Of a DNA stretch of 64,000 bases, positions 41,189 through 55,898 are shown one piece after another (position 1 is the stretch's first letter; each line of letters starts with the position of its first letter). This DNA comes from an uncultured Chloroflexia bacterium (GTDB lineage: Bacteria > Chloroflexota > Limnocylindria > Limnocylindrales > CSP1-4): NCBI GenBank assembly GCA_963767945.1, contig CAVYGH010000011.1, forward strand, positions 353,599 through 417,598. The letters run 5' to 3'. The notes under the pieces are model-generated. The model searched no databases and was not told where the DNA came from. It worked only from the letters and a program-made list of their open reading frames with translations. The position numbers were made by a program, and so were the translations under genes.

Positions 41189-42061
41189 ATGACCGGACCG
41201 ACCGACCCCAGCCCCCGCGAGGCGTCCCACGCGCGGGTGATCGCCGTCCGCGGCGGCCAGGTGACGGTCCGCGAGGACCGGCTGTCGGGCGAGGAGCCGA
41301 TGGCGATCCGCGCCCAGGGCCCGGGCCAGGACCCGGTGGACGTCGCGGTGACGATGCGGACGCCCGGGCACGAGGACGAGCTCGCCGTCGGGTTCCTGCG
41401 GACCGAGGGGTTGATCGACGACGCGACCGAGGTCGTCGGGATCACCCGCGGCGACCCGGCCACGCACGCCCAGCCCGACGACGAGATCACGGTGGTCCTG
41501 GCCCGGCCGTTCGACGCGAGCCGCGTCGCCGAGCGCCACTTCGTGGCCACCGCATCGTGCGGGATCTGCGGCAAGGCGTCGCTCGACGAGGTGGAGGTCC
41601 GCTGCGATCCCATTCCCGCGGGGCCGGTGATCGACCCGTCCGTGCTCATCGGCCTCCCGGATCGGCTGCGCGAGGCGCAGGCGGTGTTCGAGGCGACGGG
41701 CGGGCTGCACGCGGCCGGCCTGTTCACGGCGTCCGGCGAGCTCGTCGCCCTGCGGGAGGACGTCGGCCGCCACAACGCGCTGGACAAGCTGGTCGGGAGC
41801 CAGGTCCTGGCCGGTCGGCTGCCGCTGCACGACCGGATCGTGCTCGTCTCGGGCCGGGCGAGCTTCGAGCTGGTGCAGAAGGCGGCGGTCGCCGGCGTGC
41901 CGATCCTCGCCGCGGTCTCCGCGCCGTCCGACCTGGCCGTCGACGCCGCCGAGCGCCTGGGCGTGACCCTGGTCGGCTTCCTGCGGGGCGACGGCTTCAA
42001 CGTCTACGCGCACGGGGAGCGCCTCGCGCTCGGGGACGCGTCACCCGGCGGCGCGACGTGA
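41189..42061 (+). CDS. fdhD: Formate dehydrogenase accessory sulfurtransferase FdhD
   Basis: Intact 290 aa with SCGICGKASLD, GGLHAAGLF, EDVGRHNALDKLVG and SGRASFELVQKAAVAGVP. Confidence 0.85.
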   Translation: MTGPTDPSPREASHARVIAVRGGQVTVREDRLSGEEPMAIRAQGPGQDPVDVAVTMRTPGHEDELAVGFLRTEGLIDDATEVVGITRGDPATHAQPDDEITVVLARPFDASRVAERHFVATASCGICGKASLDEVEVRCDPIPAGPVIDPSVLIGLPDRLREAQAVFEATGGLHAAGLFTASGELVALREDVGRHNALDKLVGSQVLAGRLPLHDRIVLVSGRASFELVQKAAVAGVPILAAVSAPSDLAVDAAERLGVTLVGFLRGDGFNVYAHGERLALGDASPGGAT

Positions 42062-42573
42062 TCCTGCCCAAGGTCCGGGATCCCCGGTTCATCACCGTGC
42101 GTCGCGGCGGCAGCCTCCGGGACGACGACCACCAGCGGCTCGCGGTCTGGGCGGCCGACTGTGCCCAGCACGTGCTGCACCACTTCGAGGACGCGCGGCC
42201 GGGTGACGACCGTCCACGACGCGCGATCGACCTGGGGCGGGCCTGGGCGCGGGGGGAGATCCCGTGGGCGGACGCCCGCACGGCGGCCGGCCATGCCAAC
42301 GCCGCGGCCAGGGACCTGCGTGGGGCGGCACGGCATGCCGCGTACGCCGCCGGCCAGGCCGCGGCGGTCGGTCACGTGGCGGCCCACGAGCTGGGCGCCG
42401 CGGCCTACGCGGTGCAGGCGGCGCGAGCGGCGGCGCCCGAGGGCGAGCGCGAGGCGGCCGGACGCCGGGAGTGCCGGTGGCAGCGCGCCCAGCTGCCCGC
42501 CGAGATCCGGGAGCTCGTGCTCGACGATCAGCGGCTGCGCAACGAGCTGTGCTGGTTCGCCTTCGACTGCTGA
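42058..42573 (+). CDS. Helical hypothetical protein (resembles the 'Imm5-like' putative immunity family, tentative)
   Basis: GTG 42058 overlaps the fdhD stop (GTGA). The sequence is ..HQRLAVWAADCAQHVLHHFEDARPGDDRPRRAIDLGRAWARGEI..AAHELGAAAYAVQAAR..ERECRWQRAQLPAEIRELVL. The family assignment is from memory only. Confidence 0.45.
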   Translation: MILPKVRDPRFITVRRGGSLRDDDHQRLAVWAADCAQHVLHHFEDARPGDDRPRRAIDLGRAWARGEIPWADARTAAGHANAAARDLRGAARHAAYAAGQAAAVGHVAAHELGAAAYAVQAARAAAPEGEREAAGRRECRWQRAQLPAEIRELVLDDQRLRNELCWFAFDC

Positions 42574-42594: not shown

Positions 42595-43593
42595 CTAGTC
42601 GGCCGCGGCGGCGTCCAGGGTCACCAGCAGGCGGCAGTGGTCGCCGACCGCCGAGCAGTCCACCGCGGTGCGGACCGGCCGGAGCATCGAGCCGGTCAGC
42701 ACGTGGTCGATCCGCAGCACGCCGAACCCGAGCGGCTCCAGCGCATCCGGTCGCCAGGTGAACCCGGGACCGATCCCGACGGCCTCGTGGGCGTCGACGA
42801 GCCCCCGCCGGAGGCTCTCGAGGCCGGGCTCCTGGCTGGTGCCGTTGAGGTCGCCGACGACGAGTGCCGCCGCCGGGTCGTCGAGCGCGTCGACCGCCGC
42901 GCGGACCGCGGCCACCTCCTGGTCGCGCGCCTTGGTGTTGAGCGAGAACGCGATCGGGCCGACGTTGCGGTAGAGCGGCCGGGTGGGGTGCACGTCGAGC
43001 AGCTCCACCGTTCGGCCGTCGGGGAGCAGCAGGCCGGCGTGGAGGATCCGTTCGTCTGGGTGTCCGGGGCGCTCGATCAGCGGGAGGCGGGACAGGATGC
43101 CGAGGCCGTCGGGTCCGGGCGCCGGGTCGAGGATCCGGTACGGGTAGCGCGTCAGCAGCGACGGGTCCGCGGCGATGGCCTCCGAGAACGCCGGCGTCAG
43201 CTCCTGGAGGGCCACGACGTCGGCGTCCATGTCGGCGATGCCGGCCACGGCGGCCGACGGTGGCTTCGACCCCATCTCGAGGTTCCAGGACAGGACCCTG
43301 AGGCCGTCGTCCGACGCCCGGTCGCCGGGGGACGAGAACAGCTCGCCGCCCACGAGCACGATCGCGACGACCAGGACCGCGACGGCGCCCAGTCGAGGCC
43401 AGGCGCCGGTCGTGCCCGAGCCCAGCGACGCGACGATGGCGAGGATCGCGAAGATGGCCGCCAGCGAGATCAGGTGGACCTCGAACACGCTCGCCAGCGG
43501 CAGCGGACCGGTCTGGGCGCGCACGACCCGCTGGACGAGCACGACGAGGACGAGGAACCCCGCGGCGGCGACAAACACCATGGCGCGCATCAC
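42595..43593 (-). CDS. Endonuclease/exonuclease/phosphatase (EEP) family protein with N-terminal TM helices
   Basis: Intact 332 aa with three N-terminal hydrophobic segments, then LRVLSWNLE, DVVALQEL, VVGDLNG and VLRIDHVL. Confidence 0.75.
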   Translation of the reverse strand: MMRAMVFVAAAGFLVLVVLVQRVVRAQTGPLPLASVFEVHLISLAAIFAILAIVASLGSGTTGAWPRLGAVAVLVVAIVLVGGELFSSPGDRASDDGLRVLSWNLEMGSKPPSAAVAGIADMDADVVALQELTPAFSEAIAADPSLLTRYPYRILDPAPGPDGLGILSRLPLIERPGHPDERILHAGLLLPDGRTVELLDVHPTRPLYRNVGPIAFSLNTKARDQEVAAVRAAVDALDDPAAALVVGDLNGTSQEPGLESLRRGLVDAHEAVGIGPGFTWRPDALEPLGFGVLRIDHVLTGSMLRPVRTAVDCSAVGDHCRLLVTLDAAAAD

Positions 43594-43630: not shown

Positions 43631-44689
43631 TCACGCTTGCGGCGGGTCCCCGGGCAGGCGCGAGCCCTTCGGCAGCAGCTGGACGAACTCGTAGCCGAAG
43701 CGGCCCTTGACGCACAGGTGGCCGTCGGTCACCGACGAATCGGCGGGCGAGGTGACCTTGACGATCGCGTTGTCCTGGACGTGCAGCGACAGCGTGCAGC
43801 CCACGCCGCAGTACGGGCAGATCGTGTCGGTCACGGTCTGCGCCTCGGGAGCCCATGTGCCGGCCTCGCGCATGTCGAACTCGGACTTGAACATCAGGGC
43901 ACCCGTCGGGCAGACGCCGATGCAGTTGCCGCAGTACACGCAGGCGGACTCCGGGAGCGCGACGTCGAACTCGGTCGAGATCCGCGCGTCGAAGCCCCGG
44001 CCGGCCACCGCGATCGCGAACGTGTTCTGCGCGTCCTCGCCGCACGCCTCGACGCACTTGTAGCAGAGGATGCAGCGCGAGTAGTCGCGGACGTACAGGT
44101 CGTTGTCCACCTTGACCGGCTGGGCCACGGTCTCGGCCGCCGCCGGGTGCCCGGCGTCGACCGCGGGCGCGTGGTGGTGGCCAGGCTCGCGCGCGTCGCG
44201 CTCGCCGGCCTGGGCGGCAGGCTGCGGCGGGCCGAAGCGCGTCGCGTCCGCGCCGTACCGGTCCGCGTATCGCGCGAGGTCGCCGTCGGGCTCCGCGGGG
44301 CCGGCCAGCGAGAGGTCGACCGACGAGCCGAGCAGCTCCAGGACCAGCCGCCGCGAGTGCCGAACGCGCTCGCTGTCGGTCTGGACCTCCATCCCGGCCT
44401 CGACCCGGCGCGAGCAGGCGGGCACGAGGACCCGCGACCCGGTCACCTCGACCACGCACACCCGGCACACGTTGACCGGCGTCAGGTTCTCGAGATAGCA
44501 CAGCGTCGGCGTGTCCACGCCCACCGACCGGGCGGCCTCGAGGATCGTGGACCCGGCGGGGACGGAGACGGGCGCGCCGTCGATGCTGAGCTCGACGACC
44601 GGCACCTCGGGTTGCGGTGGCGCCTCGGGCACGCGCGTCGGGCGCGCCGGGAGCTCGGTGTAGATGCGCGAGATGTCGGGCGTGCTCAT
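43631..44689 (-). CDS. Fe-S N-terminal module of NAD-type formate dehydrogenase alpha subunit (NuoG-like 2Fe-2S + 4Fe-4S domains plus the Molybdop_Fe4S4 domain), ending where the Mo-bisPGD domain should begin
   Basis: SIDGAPVSVPAGSTILEAAR..PTLCYLENLTPVNVCRVCVVEV; CILCYKCVEACGE; CVYCGNCIGVCPTGAL; ICPYCGVGCTLSL...DGHLCVKGRFGYEFVQ, then 15 unrelated residues and a stop. ATG 44689 overlaps the upstream stop (ATGA). Confidence 0.8.
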   Translation of the reverse strand: MSTPDISRIYTELPARPTRVPEAPPQPEVPVVELSIDGAPVSVPAGSTILEAARSVGVDTPTLCYLENLTPVNVCRVCVVEVTGSRVLVPACSRRVEAGMEVQTDSERVRHSRRLVLELLGSSVDLSLAGPAEPDGDLARYADRYGADATRFGPPQPAAQAGERDAREPGHHHAPAVDAGHPAAAETVAQPVKVDNDLYVRDYSRCILCYKCVEACGEDAQNTFAIAVAGRGFDARISTEFDVALPESACVYCGNCIGVCPTGALMFKSEFDMREAGTWAPEAQTVTDTICPYCGVGCTLSLHVQDNAIVKVTSPADSSVTDGHLCVKGRFGYEFVQLLPKGSRLPGDPPQA

Positions 44690-46584
44690 GCGCCGATCGC
44701 CTCGAAGTGGACGAGCCCGCCCTTGATCGCGCTCTCGATGGCCGAGGAGGCCGTCTGGCCCAGGCCGCAGATCGAGGCGTCGCGCATCGCGCGCGCCAGG
44801 TCGTCGAACAGGGCGACCTCCGCGTCGACCGAGCCCATCGGGCGCCCCGCGGCCAGCCGCGCGAGCAGTTCCTCCTGGCGTACGGTCCCGACCCGGCACG
44901 GGACGCACTGGCCGCACGACTCGTCGCGGAAGAAGGCGGCGATGCGGCGCAGGGTCCCGGGCAGGTCCGCGGTCTCGTCGAACACCATGACCACGCCCGA
45001 GCCGAGCGTCGCCCCCGCGGCGCGCGTGCCCTCGAACGTCATCCGGGTGCCCAGCGCGTCGCGGCCCACGAACGCGCCCGCCGCGCCGCCCAGCAGGATC
45101 GCCTGGATCCGGCGGTTGCCCGGGACGCCGCCGGCCAGCTCGATCAGGTCGCCCAGGGTGGACCCGAACTCGGTCTCGTAGACGCCGGGCCGGGCGACGT
45201 GACCGGAGATGCAGAACAGCTTCGGCCCCGTCGACCCCTCCGTCCCGAGCGTCGCGTAGACGGCCCCGCCGTCGTGCAGGACCAGCGGCAGGTTGACCAG
45301 GGTCTCGACGTTGTTCACGGCGGTCGGCTTGCCGAACAGGCCCACCTCGACCGGGAACGGCGGCTTGTTGCGCGGCTCGGGGCGCCCGCCCTCGATCGAC
45401 TCGAACAGGGCCGTCTCCTCGCCCGCGATGTACGCCCCGGCGCCGATCCGGAGCTCGATGTCGAACGACCAGCCGGAGCCCGCGACGTCGTCGCCGAGCA
45501 GGTCGGCGCGGCGCGCCTGGTCGATCGCGGCGGCGAGGCGGGTGCGGGCCAGCGGGTACTCGCCCCGCAGGTACAGGTAGCCGCGCGACGCGCCGACGGC
45601 GAACCCGGCGATGGTCATCGACTCGACCAGCGCGAACGGGTCGTGCTCGAGGATCACCCGGTCCTTGAAGGTGCCCGGCTCGGACTCGTCCGCGTTGCAC
45701 ACGAGGTAGCGCGGCGTCGCGGGCTGGCCGGCCACCGCGGCCCACTTGCGACCGGTCGGGAACGCGGCCCCGCCCCGCCCGACCAGCCTGGCCGCCGTCA
45801 CCTCGTCGATGACCGCCTGCGGTCCCATGGCCAGCGCCTTGTGCAGCGCGCGATAGCCGCCGTCGTCGCGGTACGCGTCGAGCGACGTCGGGTCCACCCG
45901 GCCGACCCGCTTCAGCAGTCGCAGCGACGGATCGCCGGCCTGCGGCGCGAGCTGTCCCGCATCGACGACGTCGGGGTCGATGTCGGGCGACAGCCTGACG
46001 GTCGTCAGGAGGTCGAGGACGTCGTCCGCTCCGAAGAGGCCGCCCTGGACGTGCGCCCGGGCCCCCGGACCCGCGGCCGTGACCATCACCGCCGGCGCGC
46101 GCTCGCACTGGCCGAGGCAGGGACTGCGCAGCCAGGTCGTCTCGCCGTCCGTTCCGTCCGTGCCGGCCGGCCCGTGGCGCGCCGCCAGCTCGTCGCAGAT
46201 CCGTTCCGCGCCGGCCAGCCGGCAGGCGATGTCGTCGCACACGTGGGCGACGACCGGTGCGCGCGGGGTCGTGGGCAGCAGCGCGTAGAACGACGCGACG
46301 CCGTACGCCTCGGCGGGCGGGACCGCGAGCCGTCGGGACACGTGGTTCAGCGCGCCCCGGCTGACCCAGCCGATCCGGCCGGCGGCCGCTTCGAGGGCGG
46401 GCAGCAGGAGGTCGCGTCGCGCTCGGGCGTCGTGGCCGCCGTGCGACACGTGGCCGTCGACGGCGGTGTCGCGGGTGCCTCCGGCCCAGCCCGATCGCGG
46501 CGCCCCGATCTCCGGGTCCAGCACGGCGTCGATCGCCGCCCGCTCCTCGGGCGTGGCCGCGGGCCCGACGACGTGGAGGTCCAT
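44686..46584 (-). CDS. NuoE-NuoF fusion protein (NAD(H)-binding, FMN, Fe-S; formate dehydrogenase beta/gamma-like)
   Basis: Intact 632 aa. NuoE part: ..FYALL..VCDDIAC..SPCLGQCERAP. NuoF part: GRGGAAFPTGRKW, LVCNADESEPGTFKDR, AGAYIAGEETAL and ESCGQCVPCRVG..ASICGLGQ. Confidence 0.85.
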   Translation of the reverse strand: MDLHVVGPAATPEERAAIDAVLDPEIGAPRSGWAGGTRDTAVDGHVSHGGHDARARRDLLLPALEAAAGRIGWVSRGALNHVSRRLAVPPAEAYGVASFYALLPTTPRAPVVAHVCDDIACRLAGAERICDELAARHGPAGTDGTDGETTWLRSPCLGQCERAPAVMVTAAGPGARAHVQGGLFGADDVLDLLTTVRLSPDIDPDVVDAGQLAPQAGDPSLRLLKRVGRVDPTSLDAYRDDGGYRALHKALAMGPQAVIDEVTAARLVGRGGAAFPTGRKWAAVAGQPATPRYLVCNADESEPGTFKDRVILEHDPFALVESMTIAGFAVGASRGYLYLRGEYPLARTRLAAAIDQARRADLLGDDVAGSGWSFDIELRIGAGAYIAGEETALFESIEGGRPEPRNKPPFPVEVGLFGKPTAVNNVETLVNLPLVLHDGGAVYATLGTEGSTGPKLFCISGHVARPGVYETEFGSTLGDLIELAGGVPGNRRIQAILLGGAAGAFVGRDALGTRMTFEGTRAAGATLGSGVVMVFDETADLPGTLRRIAAFFRDESCGQCVPCRVGTVRQEELLARLAAGRPMGSVDAEVALFDDLARAMRDASICGLGQTASSAIESAIKGGLVHFEAIGA

Positions 46585-46605
46585 CGAGCCCGAGTGTAGT
46601 GCGCC

Positions 46606-47719
46606 CTACAGCGTCAGCGGCGGCCCGTACCAGACCGAGGCCGCGATGATCGCGTAGAGACCCAGCAGCATCAGGCCCTCGAGCCAGGTCGACTCGCCGT
46701 CGAACACGACGAATGCCCCGAGGACCGCGCTGAGCGTCGAGCCCGACCAGCAGCGTGGGCGACAGCACGAGCGTCATCGGGACCGGCGACACGAACAGGC
46801 TGGCGAGCACCATCAGCGGCAGCAGCGCGATCGCGACCTGCAGGCTCGAGTTCTGGATGAGGCTGATCGCGAGGTCCGTCCGGCCCTTCCACGCCTGCTG
46901 GACGCCGACGACGTGCTCGACCGCGTTGCCCGCCAGAGCGACGACCACGAGGCCCACGAACGCCTCCGACCAGCCGAGCGCCGCCATGGTCGGCTGGAGC
47001 GCGTCCACGAACCACTCCGAGATGACCGCGGCGCCGATCGCCGAGGCCGCGAGCACGACGACCGCCAGCCGCAGCGGCCAGGCGTGCTCCTTGGGCGGAC
47101 CGATCGCCGAGGCCCCCTTGCCGCCCGCCAGCGAGTACGGGATGGAGGCCGCGAAGATCACCAGCAGGATCACGGACACGAACACCGAGATCTCCACCGC
47201 GTGGCCGCGGTCGGGCCCGCTGGGCGCCGTCGAGACCGTGGGGATCGCGATCGCGGCCACCGCCAGCACGAGCACGACCGCGATGGTCCGCACCGGCGCG
47301 GCGTCGAACACCTGGCGCCCGTTGCGCAGGCCGCCCGCGAAGAACGCGAGGCCCAGCACGAGCAGGCTGTTGCCGAGGATCGAGCCGATCAGGGACGTCT
47401 GCGTCAGGACGACGAGGCCCTCCTGCAGGGCGAAGATCGAGATGAACAGCTCCGGCAGGTTGCCCAGCGCCGACTGGAGGACGCCGGTCGTGCCCGCCCC
47501 GAAGTGGGAGCCGAGGTGATCGGTGCCCTCGCCCACCAGCCCGGCGAGGACCGCGAGCGTCACGGTCGAGGCGACGAACACCGCCACGTCCGGCGCACCG
47601 GCGACCTTGAGGCCCGCGGTCACGAGGATGCCCACGACCGCGACGATCGCCATCGCCAGCGCGGCGCGGCCGAGCAGCCCGACGATGCCGGACGGGTGTT
47701 GGGCGGGAGCGTCGGCCAT
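46606..47719 (-). CDS. cax: Ca2+/H+ (cation/proton) antiporter, CaCA/CAX family; frame break near 46745
   Basis: MADAPAQH.. with the alpha-repeats GNLPELFISIFAL and LAGNAVEHVVGV and 10-11 TM helices. The C-terminus is recovered in the adjacent frame (STLSAVLGAFVVFDGESTWLEGLMLLGLYAIIAASVWYGPPLTL-TAG 46606). Confidence 0.8.
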
Positions 47720-47783
47720 CGACCCACTCTCGCGGCGCGCGCCGCGCCATGTCAATTCGCCGGCGATCCGGGATGATCGCGCC

Positions 47784-48524
47784 ATGTCCCTGCGCCACCA
47801 CGAGATCGCCGAAGCCAACCACCGGATCCTCGATCCGATCACCGAGCCGAAGCTCCGGCTGCTCGGCGAGGTCTCGGGCGTCGCGGCCGGCACGCGCGTG
47901 CTCGATCTCGCCTGCGGCAAGGGCGAGATGCTCTGCCGCTGGGCCGAGTGGTTCGGGTCGGGCGGGCTGGGCGTCGACCTCAGCCCCGTGTTCCTGGCCG
48001 CGGCCGCCGAACGCGCCGCGGAGCTCGGCGTCGGCGATCGCGTCACGTTCGTCCAGGGCGACGCCGGGGCCTTCGAGCCCGAGCCGGCCGCCTTCGACAT
48101 CGGCGCGTGCATCGGCGCGACGTGGATCGGCGGCGGACTCGCCGGCACGGTCGACCTGCTGCGGCCGGCCATCCGGCGCGACGGGCGCCTGCTCATCGGC
48201 GAGCCCTACTGGACCGAGCCGCCGCCGGACGAGGCGGTCGAGGCGCTCGGGTTCGCGCCCGACGAGTTCGTCTCCCTCGAGGGCACGCTCGACCGCCTCG
48301 AGGCGGCGGGCACGGAGCTCGTGGAGCTGGTCCTCGCCGACGGCGACAGCTGGGACCGCTACGAGGCGGCCCAGTGGCGCACGATCGACGCGTGGCTGGC
48401 CGCCAACCCGGCCGATCCGGACCACGACGCGATGCGCGAGTTCCTGGACCACGGCCGGCGGACCTACCTGCGCTGGGGCCGGCGCTACCTCGGCTGGGGC
48501 GTCTTCGTCACCCGTCCGCGCTGA
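47784..48524 (+). CDS. Class I SAM-dependent methyltransferase
   Basis: MSLRHHEIAEANHRILDP...VLDLACGKGEML (motif I)...GVDLSPVFL..FVQGDA.. within ORF 47523..48524. Confidence 0.75.
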   Translation: MSLRHHEIAEANHRILDPITEPKLRLLGEVSGVAAGTRVLDLACGKGEMLCRWAEWFGSGGLGVDLSPVFLAAAAERAAELGVGDRVTFVQGDAGAFEPEPAAFDIGACIGATWIGGGLAGTVDLLRPAIRRDGRLLIGEPYWTEPPPDEAVEALGFAPDEFVSLEGTLDRLEAAGTELVELVLADGDSWDRYEAAQWRTIDAWLAANPADPDHDAMREFLDHGRRTYLRWGRRYLGWGVFVTRPR

Positions 48525-48561
48525 GCGTCGGCGCACCCCGGCGCCCGACCACCGCGCGTCC

Positions 48562-48725
48562 CGTGCACCGCATGCACGCATTGGTGTCGCCTTCGTCGGC
48601 GGCGTGCATCGCATTCACGCACGCGACAGCATCCGGGTCCTGAGATCGGGTCCGACGAGCGCCCGACGTGAATGGCGTGCACGCCAGCGGTCGCGACGAC
48701 ACGGATCACGTGATTGGCGTTCACG
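48562..48725. repeat. Array of four related 17-bp palindromes CGTGMA-N5-TKCACG in a convergent intergenic region
   Basis: The four copies are 48562-48578 CGTGCACCGCATGCACG (perfect 6+5+6), 48603-48619 CGTGCATCGCATTCACG, 48667-48683 CGTGAATGGCGTGCACG and 48709-48725 CGTGATTGGCGTTCACG. Copies 3 and 4 are inverted relative to 1 and 2. The spacings are 41, 64 and 42 bp. Confidence 0.6.
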
Positions 48726-48761
48726 CCGTGGGATGGGCGGGACGCGAGAACCGGCCCGAGC

Positions 48762-50684
48762 TCAGCCCGCCGGCGCCGGCTCCGCCAGCTTCTCGACGCG
48801 GATCGCCGTCGCCTTGAACTCCGCCGTGCCGGACTTCGGGTCGGTCGCGTCGATGGTCAGGTTGTTGGTCGTGACGTCGTCCTGGAAGTGGAGCGTCATG
48901 AACGCGAGCCCGGGCCGCAGGCCCTCGTCGACCCGCACCGGCGCCTCGACGGAGCCGCGCCGCGACACCACCCGGACGCGCTCGCCCTCGGCCAGGCCGA
49001 GCCGCTCGAGGTCCTCCGGCGACAGGTCGAGGGTCTCGCCGCGCCGCCGCGGGTAGCGATAGCCGCCCGACTGGACGCCGGTGTTGTACGAGTCGAGATG
49101 GCGGCCGGTCGTGAGCCGGATCGGGAAGTCGTCGTCGAGGCGGTCGACCGGCGGGTCGTGCTCGACCGGCACGAACGGCGCGGGGTTGCCGGGCACCGGG
49201 TCCTCCCACAGCCGCGAGTGCAGGAACAGCTCGCCCGGATGGTCCTCGTCGTAGCACGGCCACTGGAGCCCGCCCTCGGCCTCGAGCCGCGCATAGCTCA
49301 TGCCCCGGTGCACGGGCGACAGCTCGCGCACCTCGTTCCAGACCGCCTCGGCGTCCGCCTCGCCCCAGTCGGCGCCCAGGCGCCTGGCGAGCTCGAAGAT
49401 GATCCACAGGTCGTCCTTCGCCTCGCCGGGCGGGACCAGCGCCGCGTGGACGCGCTGCACCCGTCGCTCGCTGTTGGTGACGGTGCCCTCGCTCTCGGCC
49501 CAGGCCGCGGCCGCCGGCAGGACGACGTCGGCGATCTCGCCGGTCGCGGTGAGGAAGATGTCCTGGACGACGAGCAGGTCGAGCCCGCGCAGGAGGCCCT
49601 CGGTCCGGTGCCGGTCCGCCTCCGACTGCAGCGGGTTCTCGCCGATCACGTACAGCGCCGTGAGCTCGCCGCGGTCCATCGCGTCGAACATCCCCGACAG
49701 GTGCCAGCCCCGTTTGGGCGGGACGCGCACGCCCCACAGGTTGTCGCACCGGTCGCGCGGCTCGTCGTTCTCGACGTGCTGGAAGCCGACCAGCCGGTCC
49801 GGCAGCGCCCCCATGTCGCCGCCGCCCTGGACGTTGTTCTGCCCGCGGAGCGGGTTGATGCCGCTGCCGTACCGCCCGACGTGCCCGGTCAGGAGGGCGA
49901 GCGAGATCAGCGCGAGGACGTTGTCGACGGCGTTGTGGTGCTCGGTGATCCCGAGGGTCCAGCAGATCATCGCCCGGTCGGCCTTGGCGTAGGCATGGGC
50001 CGCCTCGCGGATCGCCGCCGCCGGCACCCCGGTCTCGCGCTGCGCGTATTCGAGCGTGTACGGCTCGACCGCGTCGCGGTACGCCTCGAACCCCGACGTC
50101 GCCCGCCCGATGAACTCGTCGTTCGCGAGTCCCGCGTGGATGATCTCGCGCGCCATCGCGTTGGCCAGCGCGATGTCCGAGCCGACGTCGAGGCCCAGCC
50201 ACAGGTCGGCCCACTCCGCGCTGGACGTCCGTCGCGGGTCGATCGTGATCAGGCGCGCACCGCGACGCACCCCCTTCAGGAGGTGGTGGAAGAAGATCGG
50301 GTGCGTCTCCCGGGCGTTGCTGCCCCACAGGAGGAAGCAGTCCGTCTCCTCGGCCTCACGATATGAGCTGGTTCCGCCACCAGCGCCGAACACGGTCGCC
50401 AGACCGGCGACAGAGGGGGCGTGTCAGGTGCGGTTGCAGCTGTCGATGTTGTTGCTGCCCAGGACGGCGCGGGCGAACTTCTGGGCCGCGAAGTTGACCT
50501 CGTTGGTCGACTTGCTGCAGCTGAAGACCCCGAACGTCTTCGAGCCGTGCGCCTCGCCCGCCGCCCGCAGCGCCGCGGCCACCCGGTCGAGCGCCTCGTC
50601 CCAGGTCGCGGGACGGAGGACACCGGTCGAGCGGTCGCCGTCGCGGACGAGCGGCGTCGTCAGGCGGACGTACTCCTTCGGCAC
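48762..50684 (-). CDS. fdhA: Formate dehydrogenase catalytic (Mo/W-bisPGD) module, selenocysteine-containing (UGA at 50424-50426), lacking its own Fe4S4 domain
   Basis: GTG 50684 (GAGG 7 nt upstream) gives [79 protein letters not shown]..., joining ORF 50424..(tail) to ORF 48762..50393. The TGA aligns with the conserved Cys/Sec active-site position. A SECIS and the full sel gene set are present. Confidence 0.85.
50395..50411 (-). promoter_or_regulatory. Bacterial SECIS element (upper stem-loop) for the fdhA UGA
   Basis: The minus strand reads UGA-cacgccccucu-GUCGCC-GGUCU-GGCGAC. This is a 17-nt hairpin starting 11 nt after the UGA. Its GGUCU apical loop is identical to the E. coli fdhF SECIS loop. 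Confidence 0.7.
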
Positions 50685-53308: not shown

Positions 53309-54367
53309 TCAGGCGAGCGCGACGCCCGGGTCGCCGGCCTCGACGATCCCGACGCGCCACGCTGGCACGCCGGCCGCCGCGAGGCCGGCCTCCACGTCGT
53401 CGACGAGCGCCGCGGGGACGGCCGCGAGCAGCCCGCCCGAGGTCTGGGGGTCGTGGGCGAGGGCGACGAGCTCCGGCGGGACGCCGTCTCCGACGGCCAG
53501 GGACGACGCGGTGAACCGACGGTTGTGCCCCGCGCCGCCGGTCTCCACGCCGGACCGGGCGAGGTCGAGCGCGCCGTCGAGCGCCGGGAGCGCCGCCGCC
53601 TCGAAGCGCAGGCGCGTCCCGGACGCGCGGGCCATCTCGAGGCCGTGCCCGAGCAGGCCGAAGCCGGTCACGTCGGTCGCACCGCGGATGTCGTGGCGCG
53701 CCAGGACCTCCGAGGCGACGCGGTTGAGCGTCCGCATCTGGTCGACGGCCGCGGCGAGGTCGCCGTCGCTCGTGGCGCCCGACCGGCGCCCGCTCACCAG
53801 CAGGCCGGTGCCCAGGCGCTTCGTGAGCAGCAGCACGTCCCCGTGGCGCGCGCCCCCCTTGCGGAACAGCCGGTCCGGATGGCCGGCGCCGATGACGGCC
53901 AGCCCGTACTTCGGCTCCGGGTCCCGGATCGTGTGGCCGCCCGCGAGCCGGCCGCCGGCCTCGCGGACCTTGCCCGCGGCGGCCTCGAAGACCGCGGCCA
54001 TCGCGTCGCGCGGGAAGTCCTCGGGGAAGGCCGCGATCGAGAGCGCGAACAGGACCCGGCCGCCCATCGCGTACACGTCGGACAGCGCATTGGCCGCGGC
54101 GATCGCCCCGTAGTCGGCCGGGTCGTCGACGAGGGGCGGGAAGAAGTCGAGCGTGCCCAGGATCGCGAGATCGTCGGAGATCCGGTACGCGGCGGCGTCG
54201 TCGGGCGGGTCGAGGCCGGCGATGAGCGCCCCGTCGGGCTGCGTCGCCCCGAGCCCGGACAGGGCGTCGGCCAGCAGGTCGGCGCCGAGCTTCGCGGCAC
54301 ACCCGCCGCAGTCGGTCAGCTCGGTCAGGCGGATGGGCGTGCGGATGGCTTCGGCTCGAACGGTCAT
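53309..54367 (-). CDS. selD: Selenide, water dikinase SelD (Cys-type)
   Basis: From [28 protein letters not shown], then [48 protein letters not shown] and DPQTSGGLL. Confidence 0.9.
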
Positions 54368-54407
54368 CGGACGATCATAGGCAAGGGTCCGCGCTAGCAT
54401 CGGACGT

Positions 54408-54504
54408 GGGAGCGGAGGGGTCCCGGTGGGTCCCCCGGTCTTCAACACCGGTGGCGCGGCGCCCGGCGTCGCGCGGTGGGTTCGACTCCCATGCGCTCCC
54501 GCCA
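54408..54504 (+). tRNA. selC: tRNA-Sec (anticodon UCA), 8/5-type with a long variable arm
   Basis: Folded by hand. Acceptor GGGAGCG(G)/(G)CGCUCCC plus discriminator G and CCA. 6-bp D stem GGGUCC-CGGU-GGGUCC. Anticodon arm CCGGU-CUUCAAC-ACCGG. An 8-bp variable arm. T arm GUGGG-UUCGACU-CCCAU. It lies between selD and selA. Confidence 0.9.
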
Positions 54505-54534
54505 CCGTGCTCGGCTCGGCCCTGCGATGATCGT

Positions 54535-55898
54535 GTGGTGAGCACGCCACACCCTCCGAGCGTCGAGCGCGTCCTCGTCGTCGCGCGCCCGCTCGCCGGA
54601 GCCCGCGATCCGGCCGCGGTGCTCTCGATGGCCCGCGCGGTCGTGGACGAGGAACGCGAACGACTGGCCGGTGGCAGTGCCGACGCCCGCTCCGCGGAGG
54701 CGCTGGGCCGCGAGGTCGCCGACCGTCTCGACGCCTTCGAGCGCCTCGCCGGTCCCGACCGGGTGATCAACGCGACCGGCGTGATCGTCCATACCAACCT
54801 CGGCCGCGCGCCGTGGCCGGCCGCTGCGCGTCCGCGCCGCGACCGCGGCCGCCGAGGGGACGCTGTTCCTCGAGCTCGATCGCGCGACCGGCCGTCGCGG
54901 CCGCCGGTACCGGGAGGCGGAGGACCACCTCGTCGCGCTGACCGGCGCGGAGGACGCGCTGATCGTGACCAACAACGCCGCGGCCGTCGCGCTGGCGGTC
55001 GGCCTGGCCGGCCGGGGCGGCGTCGCGGTGAGCCGCGGCGAGCTGGTGGAGATCGGCGGCGGCGTGCGGATCCCGGAGATCGTGCGGCGCGCCGGCGCGA
55101 AGCTGGTCGAGGTGGGGACGACGAACCGGACGCGCGTCGCCGACTTCGAGGAGGTCCTCGTCGACGGCCGGGCGCGGCTGGTCCTCCGCGTGCACCCCTC
55201 GAACTTCGCCCAGAGCGGGTTCGTCGAGGCGCCCGACGCGCCGGAGCTCGCCGAGGCCGCGCATCGTCACGGCGCGCTCGTCGTCGACGACCTCGGCAGC
55301 GGCGCCCTGCTCGACACGGCCGCCTTCGGCCTCGCGCACGAGCCCATGCCCCGCGAGCGGCTCGCCGACGGCGCCGACCTGGTGACGTTCAGCGGCGACA
55401 AGCTGGTCGGCGGGCCACAGGCGGGGTTCGTCGTCGGTCGCGCCGACCTCGTCGCGCGGCTGCGCAAGGACCCGCTCGCACGCGCGATGCGGCCCGACAA
55501 GGTCGTGCTCGCCGCCGTGGCCGCGACGCTCGCGCTGTACCGGGCGGGCGTCGCCGGCCGCGAGATCCCCGTGTGGCGGCAGATCTCCGCCCCGGTCGAG
55601 GACCTCGCGACGCGCGCGGAGGCGATCGCCGCCACGGCGGGCTCGCACGCCAGCGTCGTCGCGGTCGAGGCCACGGTCGGCGGCGGGTCGCTGCCCGGCC
55701 AGGTCCTGCCGTCCCGAGCCGTGTGCCTGCCGTCGGACGCGCCCGACCGGCTGCTGGCCCGCCTCCGGGCCGGCGACCCGGCGGTGATGGGACGGATCGA
55801 GGCCGGCGCCGTCGTCCTCGACCTGCGTTCGGTCGAGCCCGCCGACGACGCCCGCCCTCGCCGCGGCGGTCGCGGCGGCCATGGCCGGCCATGCCTGA
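54535..55898 (+). CDS. selA: L-seryl-tRNA(Sec) selenium transferase SelA; two frame breaks (near 54829 and 55853)
   Basis: ..[11 protein letters not shown]...[18 protein letters not shown], then (extra c) ..[61 protein letters not shown] (PLP Lys). After an extra c the C-terminus reads ..[18 protein letters not shown] 55896-55898, overlapping the selB ATG. Confidence 0.85.

Follow-up and report, generated by a model that had tools for sequence, protein, structure and literature searches.

The DNA analysed here (contig CAVYGH010000011.1; the window, in what follows, is this whole stretch of 64,000 nt) comes from a metagenome-assembled genome (MAG) of an uncultured Chloroflexia bacterium that amounts to 3.98 Mb in 22 contigs and is 80% complete. 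Between positions 43631 and 50684, it carries the genes of a putative formate dehydrogenase (FDH) containing selenocysteine (Sec), in which the parts corresponding to the single alpha chain of FdsA are encoded by two separate genes lying 4 kb apart: (i) alpha, for the module binding the Mo/W-bis-pyranopterin guanine dinucleotide (bisPGD) cofactor and (ii) gamma, for an iron-sulfur (Fe-S) protein whose gene has its stop codon after the Fe4S4 domain called FS0. A methyltransferase gene, a cax gene and a NuoE/NuoF gene (beta) are located between the two pieces, as proposed in the initial annotation and as Pfam searches and translation verify. Our analysis indicates that alpha, beta and gamma very probably form a functional and ancient cytoplasmic, NAD(H)-linked Sec-containing FDH of three subunits, in which the FdsA-type alpha chain consists of two proteins. 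The features of the locus, with the evidence used to identify each of them, are the following:

48762..50684, minus strand: alpha, putative Mo/W-bisPGD catalytic selenoprotein of 640 aa without FS0 domain (Pfam, TIGR01591, alignment to FdsA and FdhH)
50424..50426, minus strand: in-frame TGA, predicted active-site selenocysteine U87 (translation of alpha)
50395..50411, minus strand: hairpin resembling a selenocysteine insertion sequence (SECIS) (RNA fold)
44686..46584, minus strand: beta, NuoE-NuoF fusion of 632 aa (Pfam and NCBIfam)
43631..44689, minus strand: gamma, Fe-S subunit of 352 aa (translation, Pfam)
47787..48524, plus strand: methyltransferase dependent on S-adenosylmethionine, part of an insert and not of the enzyme (Pfam Methyltransf_25/31/11)
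46606..47719, minus strand: Ca2+/cation antiporter gene cax (Na_Ca_ex), part of the same insert (three-frame translation, Pfam PF01699)
41189..42061, plus strand: fdhD, FDH sulfurtransferase/maturation factor (Pfam FdhD-NarQ, E = 4.8e-67)
54406..54504, plus strand: tRNA-Sec, anticodon tca (ARAGORN)
53309-54550, minus strand: selD open reading frame (ORF), adjoining tRNA-Sec (Pfam AIRS and AIRS_C domains)

The three putative subunits

The alpha gene starts with the GTG codon at 50684, preceded 7 nt upstream by its own GAGG as had been proposed, ends with the TGA at 48762-48764 and contains one in-frame TGA, at codon 87. Its product harbors two Pfam domains, Molybdopterin (7-434) and Molydop_binding (523-626), and nothing else. 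It matches the Fdh-alpha profile TIGR01591 with 635 bits over positions 53-672 of 672, the score being below the 666-bit cutoff solely because the first 52 profile positions are absent. It aligns to residues 308-933 of FdsA from Rhodobacter capsulatus (E = 1.2e-124) and to residues 61-691 of FdhH from Escherichia coli, and the position of its start is kept in relatives. Furthermore, a single TGA is found at the U87 site in all split-family homologues that are at least 57% identical, and both the Sec-site motif and the P-x-RGQNNVQG motif that includes the catalytic Arg are invariant across 48 Mo modules. This domain pair, Sec-His and the conserved Arg point to a Mo/W-bisPGD formate dehydrogenase.

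A hairpin (GUCGCC-GGUCU-GGCGAC) begins 12 nt past the UGA. Among 16 sequences belonging to four phyla, 99% of the cells of this SECIS hairpin are paired, and covariation comprises one compensatory change from a C-G to a G-C pair at synonymous sites and G-U wobble changes. The UGA codon, the SECIS hairpin and the presence of tRNA-Sec and selD suggest that alpha is a bacterial selenoprotein gene.

The gamma gene begins with an ATG that overlaps the stop codon of the beta gene (ATGA). Translation and Pfam searches recover in this ORF the NuoG-like 2Fe-2S/4Fe-4S domains and the Fe4S4 domain of Mo enzymes that were initially assigned to it: Fer2_4 at residues 32-106, a two-cluster ferredoxin domain at 205-264 and Molybdop_Fe4S4 at 285-337. 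The last of these, FS0, includes C291, C294, C298 and C326 plus K328, and the protein ends with ...HLCVKGRFGYEFVQLLPKGSRLPGDPPQA just before the stop codon. The N-terminal ~250 residues match HoxU (E = 2.6e-43) and NuoG. The part of R. capsulatus FdsA (6TG9) to which gamma aligns is residues 18-303 (E = 1.6e-45); hence, the break does fall at a domain boundary, the cut corresponding to the short linker located directly after FS0 (FdsA residues 303/308). In 74 gamma homologues, the four Cys of the 2Fe-2S cluster, both CxxCxxCxxxC motifs and the FS0 motif CxYCGVGC...LC-x-KGRFG with its Lys are invariant or nearly so.

The beta protein carries the Pfam domains 2Fe-2S_thioredx, Complex1_51K, SLBB and NADH_4Fe-4S and matches the NCBIfam models nuoF_fam and NuoE. 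It therefore combines a [2Fe-2S] thioredoxin-like domain, a site for flavin mononucleotide (FMN) and NAD(H), an SLBB domain and the [4Fe-4S] domain of NuoF. As judged from these domains, beta would correspond to the diaphorase of FdsABG(D) enzymes, with its NuoE-like [2Fe-2S] and NuoF-like FMN/[4Fe-4S] parts, here fused. In addition, a database protein of 615 aa (P0283) that is 86% identical to the Fe-S subunit also possesses the NuoF domains Complex1_51K and SLBB; it may represent either a fusion of beta with gamma or, in a relative, a gene call affected by a frameshift.

FdsA possesses a [4Fe-4S] cluster, A4, that lies off the path leading from the bis-MGD cofactor (bis-molybdopterin guanine dinucleotide) to FMN and is located at the dimer interface (Radon et al. 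2020, PMC7171172). The corresponding domain, PF10588 (NADH-G_4Fe-4S_3), was found neither in gamma from the window nor in three homologues from other phyla, and the contiguous paralogue has one. His117, Cys121, Cys124 and Cys130 of FdsA align in gamma to Val, a gap, Gly and Gly, respectively, and the HxxxCxxCxxxxxC motif is present in none of the 74 gamma homologues. The segment of ~103 residues that replaces A4 is free of Cys in 69 of these 74 proteins and contains a conserved PGHHH motif. The split family thus lacks the His-ligated off-pathway cluster A4 of FdsA. Since A4 sits off the path from bis-MGD to FMN, its loss should not break electron transfer; it may abolish the dimer link of the FdsA type. 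The replacing segment (gamma residues ~93-205) keeps its length of ~103 aa and also shows the cross-phylum motifs SSVD.S, ERYG..P.RFG, GERD...PGHHH and QPVKVDNDLYVRDY.

Conservation of the split and the insert of Limnocylindria

All 24 same-genus genomes harbor the two pieces as separate genes on the same strand, the Mo gene being 2-10 kb upstream. The gene maps of 17 same-genus loci show the order Mo, NuoEF, Fe-S, with nothing in between in the four most compact ones. A scan of species-representative genomes with the Fe-S piece gave 80 loci (matches at 66-87% identity) labeled as Chloroflexota, Actinomycetota, Acidobacteriota, Planctomycetota and others. The same order was found in every locus with enough upstream DNA, except for three Limnocylindria loci in which the Mo gene is absent within 8-10 kb. 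Actinomycetota homologues share 63-71% identity, and the same break point occurs in proteins that are 63-73% identical.

Moreover, of 300 evenly sampled Chloroflexota genomes, about 30 encode a homologue of alpha that is at least 57% identical, starts at query residue 1-7 and has one TGA in a frame of ~650 aa; the next-best matches are at most 46% identical and their frames of 900-1000 aa correspond to contiguous enzymes. In a maximum-likelihood tree, 52 split alpha proteins group in one clade (support 100) versus three contiguous same-genus paralogues. In comparisons with relatives from the genus and the class, each of the three genes has a pairwise ratio of nonsynonymous to synonymous substitutions (dN/dS) of 0.13-0.35; all of them are under purifying selection. 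A Mo module that stands alone without the Fe4S4 domain is thus the normal and widespread architecture of this enzyme family in relatives, a possibility that the initial annotation had raised. A search of 1.84 billion representative sequences with the Fe-S piece returned mainly fragments, together with N-terminal pieces of contiguous enzymes truncated at Sec (357-378 aa, the match ending ~80 residues before the end). Split forms can therefore not be counted by length alone in this search.

Homology searches of the MAG detected no intact paralogue of the Mo module, the sole other Fe-S match being NuoG. Some other members of the genus (loci L029, 1039-~7000, plus strand; L042, L043 and L082) carry a second, contiguous Sec-FDH beside the split one. 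This enzyme has its Fe-S and Mo parts in one chain, is 47% identical, includes an A4-type domain and precedes parts that resemble NuoE/F and GltD (pyridine nucleotide-disulfide oxidoreductase).

Besides the window, loci L027-L041 and L044-L100 were compared for the distance between alpha and beta: it is 2-207 nt outside Limnocylindria and mostly 0.9-4.9 kb in Limnocylindria, with extremes of 8 nt and 4.9 kb in the latter. The cargo of this insert varies between species: cax, methyltransferase, both, others or none. The methyltransferase and cax genes are present at this site in some genus members only. The spacer between alpha and nuoEF (46584-48762 in the window) is an insertion hot spot specific to Limnocylindria. 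In the window, cax and the methyltransferase gene are divergent and 67 nt apart; therefore, alpha, which follows an MFS-cNMP transporter gene at a distance of 50 nt, must belong to a transcription unit distinct from that of cax, beta and gamma. The GC content of 73% made a promoter and terminator scan uninformative.

The cax gene changes frame once, near 46730-46745, where there is a GGG run (...SPTLLVG, then STLSAVLGAFVVFDGESTWLEG...), and its last ~45 codons are in another frame. The cause is either an error of long-read MAG sequencing at a homopolymer or a genuine frameshift. A perfect 15-nt direct repeat, CCGCGCTGAGCGTCG, at 46725-46739 and 48516-48530, encloses the greater part of the insert that holds cax and the methyltransferase gene. 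One of its copies is located at the cax frameshift and the other over the stop codon of the methyltransferase gene; chance alone would give ~0.04 such pairs in 2.5 kb. Besides this repeat, a repeat search found no convincing flanking repeats around the insert. The 3'-to-3' spacer between alpha and the methyltransferase gene (48555-48746) contains several palindromes of the GTGCAC/GTGAAT type and a pair of 18-nt inverted repeats (48555-48572 and 48729-48746).

On the other side of the locus, a gene for a membrane-anchored protein of the endonuclease/exonuclease/phosphatase family (42595-43593, minus strand) starts 37 nt past the Fe-S gene on the same strand, a position that is kept in several Limnocylindria genomes (L027, L033, L035-L037 and L040). 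The ORF that overlaps the stop codon of fdhD (42058-42573, plus strand) encodes an Imm5_like protein (PF21805, E = 4.7e-36).

Functional enzyme or remnant of a contiguous gene

In the three-subunit enzyme proposed here, formate would be oxidized at the Sec-Mo/W-bisPGD center of alpha. The FS0 domain of gamma, including the conserved Lys of its C-x-K-G-R-F-G motif, would dock non-covalently on alpha. Electrons would be transferred from alpha to FS0, then to two [4Fe-4S] clusters and to the [2Fe-2S] cluster, all of them carried by gamma, and from there to the NuoF-type [4Fe-4S] cluster, FMN and the presumed acceptor NAD+ on beta. The ancestral operon would have had the order alpha-beta-gamma with tiny intergenic gaps, and Limnocylindria would later have gained variable genes between alpha and beta. 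Rotating the A(FeS-Mo)-EF unit of the contiguous paralogue would give this order; a tandem duplication followed by the loss of the outer parts would yield such a rotated order and may be at its origin.

The conservation of the split and of the gene order, purifying selection and the published proteome of a homologous-looking enzyme, FDH3 of Actinomycetospora chiangmaiensis, strongly support a genuine split enzyme made from separate polypeptides, one of the three explanations put forward initially. Some points nevertheless weigh against this reading. A stretch of 2.2 kb, with a gene on the opposite strand, lies between alpha and the two other genes, and co-expression is not guaranteed. The binding of alpha to gamma is predicted from sequence, and orthology with FDH3, whose type the enzyme fits, relies on the published description of the latter, A. 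chiangmaiensis not having been recognized among the Actinomycetota homologues. The likely single origin of the split is deduced from a tree whose outgroup is one contiguous paralogue family. Lastly, the MAG is incomplete and its cax gene contains a frameshift.

Alternatively, the pieces could belong to different enzymes, the Mo protein acting by itself or with a different redox partner, and NuoEF forming an independent NAD(H) diaphorase with the Fe-S protein. The variable genes (0.9-4.9 kb) that unlink alpha from beta-gamma here and in most Limnocylindria, and the three loci without alpha in the vicinity, are consistent with such a division. However, FS0 (Molybdop_Fe4S4) is not known to act other than beside a Mo-bisPGD domain, and alpha itself lacks a cluster through which electrons could leave. 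Furthermore, the three genes are tightly packed in all loci outside Limnocylindria and co-occur in every genome of the genus (24/24), and the genome studied here shows no other Mo-bisPGD FDH partner. We consider this alternative very unlikely.

Another explanation would be a recent local rearrangement or duplication that broke a contiguous fdhA and left decaying remnants, with TGCCGAAGG...CGCCTG as the footprint of the breakpoint. The initial annotation had rightly noted that TGCCGAAGG is found at both junctions: the window has two copies of it and no more, on the minus strand at 43666-43674 and 50675-50683, which places it at the two junctions only, and CGCCTG follows these copies 6 and 9 nt later. 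In addition, both junction peptides include Pro-Lys, and close Limnocylindria relatives show CC(G/C)AAGG at both junctions. However, this 9-mer is only weakly unusual (P ~0.04 for the window alone): 0.48 copies are expected in the window, at least two copies were obtained in 9 of 100 shuffles and, when 60-mers were drawn at random from the window, 4.3% of them had a word of 9 nt or longer in common with the Fe-S tail. It encodes (L/V)PK(G/E) in a high-GC codon dialect, and codon bias leaves little freedom in the DNA that encodes the Pro-Lys dipeptide. When 57 loci were compared, the longest word common to both junctions (mode 5-7 nt) is distributed as in controls, and CC(G/C)AAGG is shared by both junctions in few close Limnocylindria relatives only. 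The tail that follows GRFG.EFVQ is short, variable across the family and not conserved outside close relatives; its "SRL", which resembles the "VRL" of the other piece, is found in this genome and its closest relative only. Moreover, since the same break point occurs across phyla in proteins that are only 63-73% identical, any footprint left in the DNA by the original event could not have lasted. The microhomology is thus not retained as a trace of the break, and we read the resemblance of the junctions as chance or as a peptide motif specific to a clade. Since dN/dS is well below 1 and the catalytic and cluster residues are intact, decaying remnants are highly improbable.

Finally, a misassembled contig with permuted halves, also evoked initially, might be suspected in a MAG fragmented into 22 contigs that shows frameshift-type errors elsewhere, but it can practically be dismissed given the identical gene order in more than 100 independent assemblies, including single-contig genomes, and the even base composition over 40-55 kb of the window.

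Significance and comparison with known systems

This gene layout is ancient and common among soil bacteria from several phyla, and one paper had already noted it in 2020 (PMC7176365). The enzyme has an ordinary function in an unusual, unstudied architecture, and the window adds no new kind of system. A literature search for a split FdsA returned nothing, and reviews as well as the ForCE paper are silent on it. To our knowledge, such a split arrangement has never been purified or structurally solved. What is added here is the Limnocylindria operon broken by a variable insert and a whole family devoid of cluster A4. Furthermore, the metal site of a Mo/W FDH and the Fe-S cluster adjacent to it can apparently be carried by different polypeptides. 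Gene callers routinely mislabel these parts, alpha being truncated at the Sec codon and gamma being named "2Fe-2S cluster-binding protein" or HndD. This matters for the annotation of formate and CO2 metabolism in uncultured Chloroflexota and may matter for the modular engineering of CO2-reducing FDHs.

The closest known counterpart is FDH3 (FdhA3-FdhB3-FdhC3; WP_084681743.1, WP_018332443.1 and WP_018332444.1) of A. chiangmaiensis DSM 45062 (Rohwerder et al. 2020, PMC7176365, Table 1 and Supplementary Fig. S4), a cytoplasmic enzyme predicted to be NAD+-dependent. FdhA3 (640 aa, Sec at U80) is homologous to the metallopterin part of FdsA/Fdh1A only, FdhB3 (614 aa) is a NuoE/NuoF fusion and FdhC3 (316 aa), an Fe-S protein separate from the others, is a homologue of the Fe-S domain at the N-terminus of FdsA. 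Proteomics detected each of the three subunits, with 2-3-fold higher levels on 2-hydroxyisobutyric acid (2-HIBA), and formate removal was selenium-dependent (PMC7176365). That paper does not discuss the location of FS0 on a separate subunit or the missing A4 cluster. The subunits encoded in the window (640, 632 and 352 aa, U87) show the same domain split; they differ from FDH3 in belonging to another phylum and in their operon, which is interrupted by cax and the methyltransferase gene. It is conceivable, although we regard it as unlikely, that FDH3-type enzymes are a distinct class of metal FDHs, in which the Sec-Mo/W alpha subunit would be a detachable cartridge on a gamma-beta base, held through FS0, in an A4-less single protomer. 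In Limnocylindria, alpha would then be independently regulated or assembled, or shared with another partner, and the regulation of this cartridge might follow, for instance, selenium or formate supply.

The FdsABG(D) enzymes of R. capsulatus and Cupriavidus necator (PDB 6TG9/6TGA, PMC7171172) have the same domain set, the same inferred electron path and a NuoE/NuoF-like diaphorase. However, FdsA is a single chain with Cys instead of Sec, and FdsG and FdsB are separate proteins; the window enzyme differs in all these respects. It also differs from this type by cluster A4, whose four ligands, present at the FdsA dimer interface, are all missing in gamma. In compact operons, no small ORF is obviously conserved, no search having been aimed at the FdsD capping subunit. 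MeFDH1 (Fdh1AB) of Methylorubrum extorquens AM1 (PDB 7E5Z/7VW6) resembles the window enzyme by its beta subunit, which is also a NuoE-NuoF fusion (supplement of PMC7176365). Its alpha subunit is homologous to both pieces found in the window but is contiguous and belongs to a W/Cys enzyme.

Gamma itself can be compared with the Fe-S module of HoxU and NuoG, to which it adds a C-terminal FS0, without the His-ligated cluster. Lastly, formylmethanofuran dehydrogenase FwdB/FwdD (FmdB/D) is a precedent for an FDH-like Mo/W-bisPGD unit carried by two polypeptides, the C-terminus being replaced by an additional subunit in M. wolfeii (PMC7171172). In FwdB/FwdD, it is the C-terminal cap that is split off and FS0 stays with the catalytic chain, whereas in the window enzyme it is the N-terminal FS0 that is split off.

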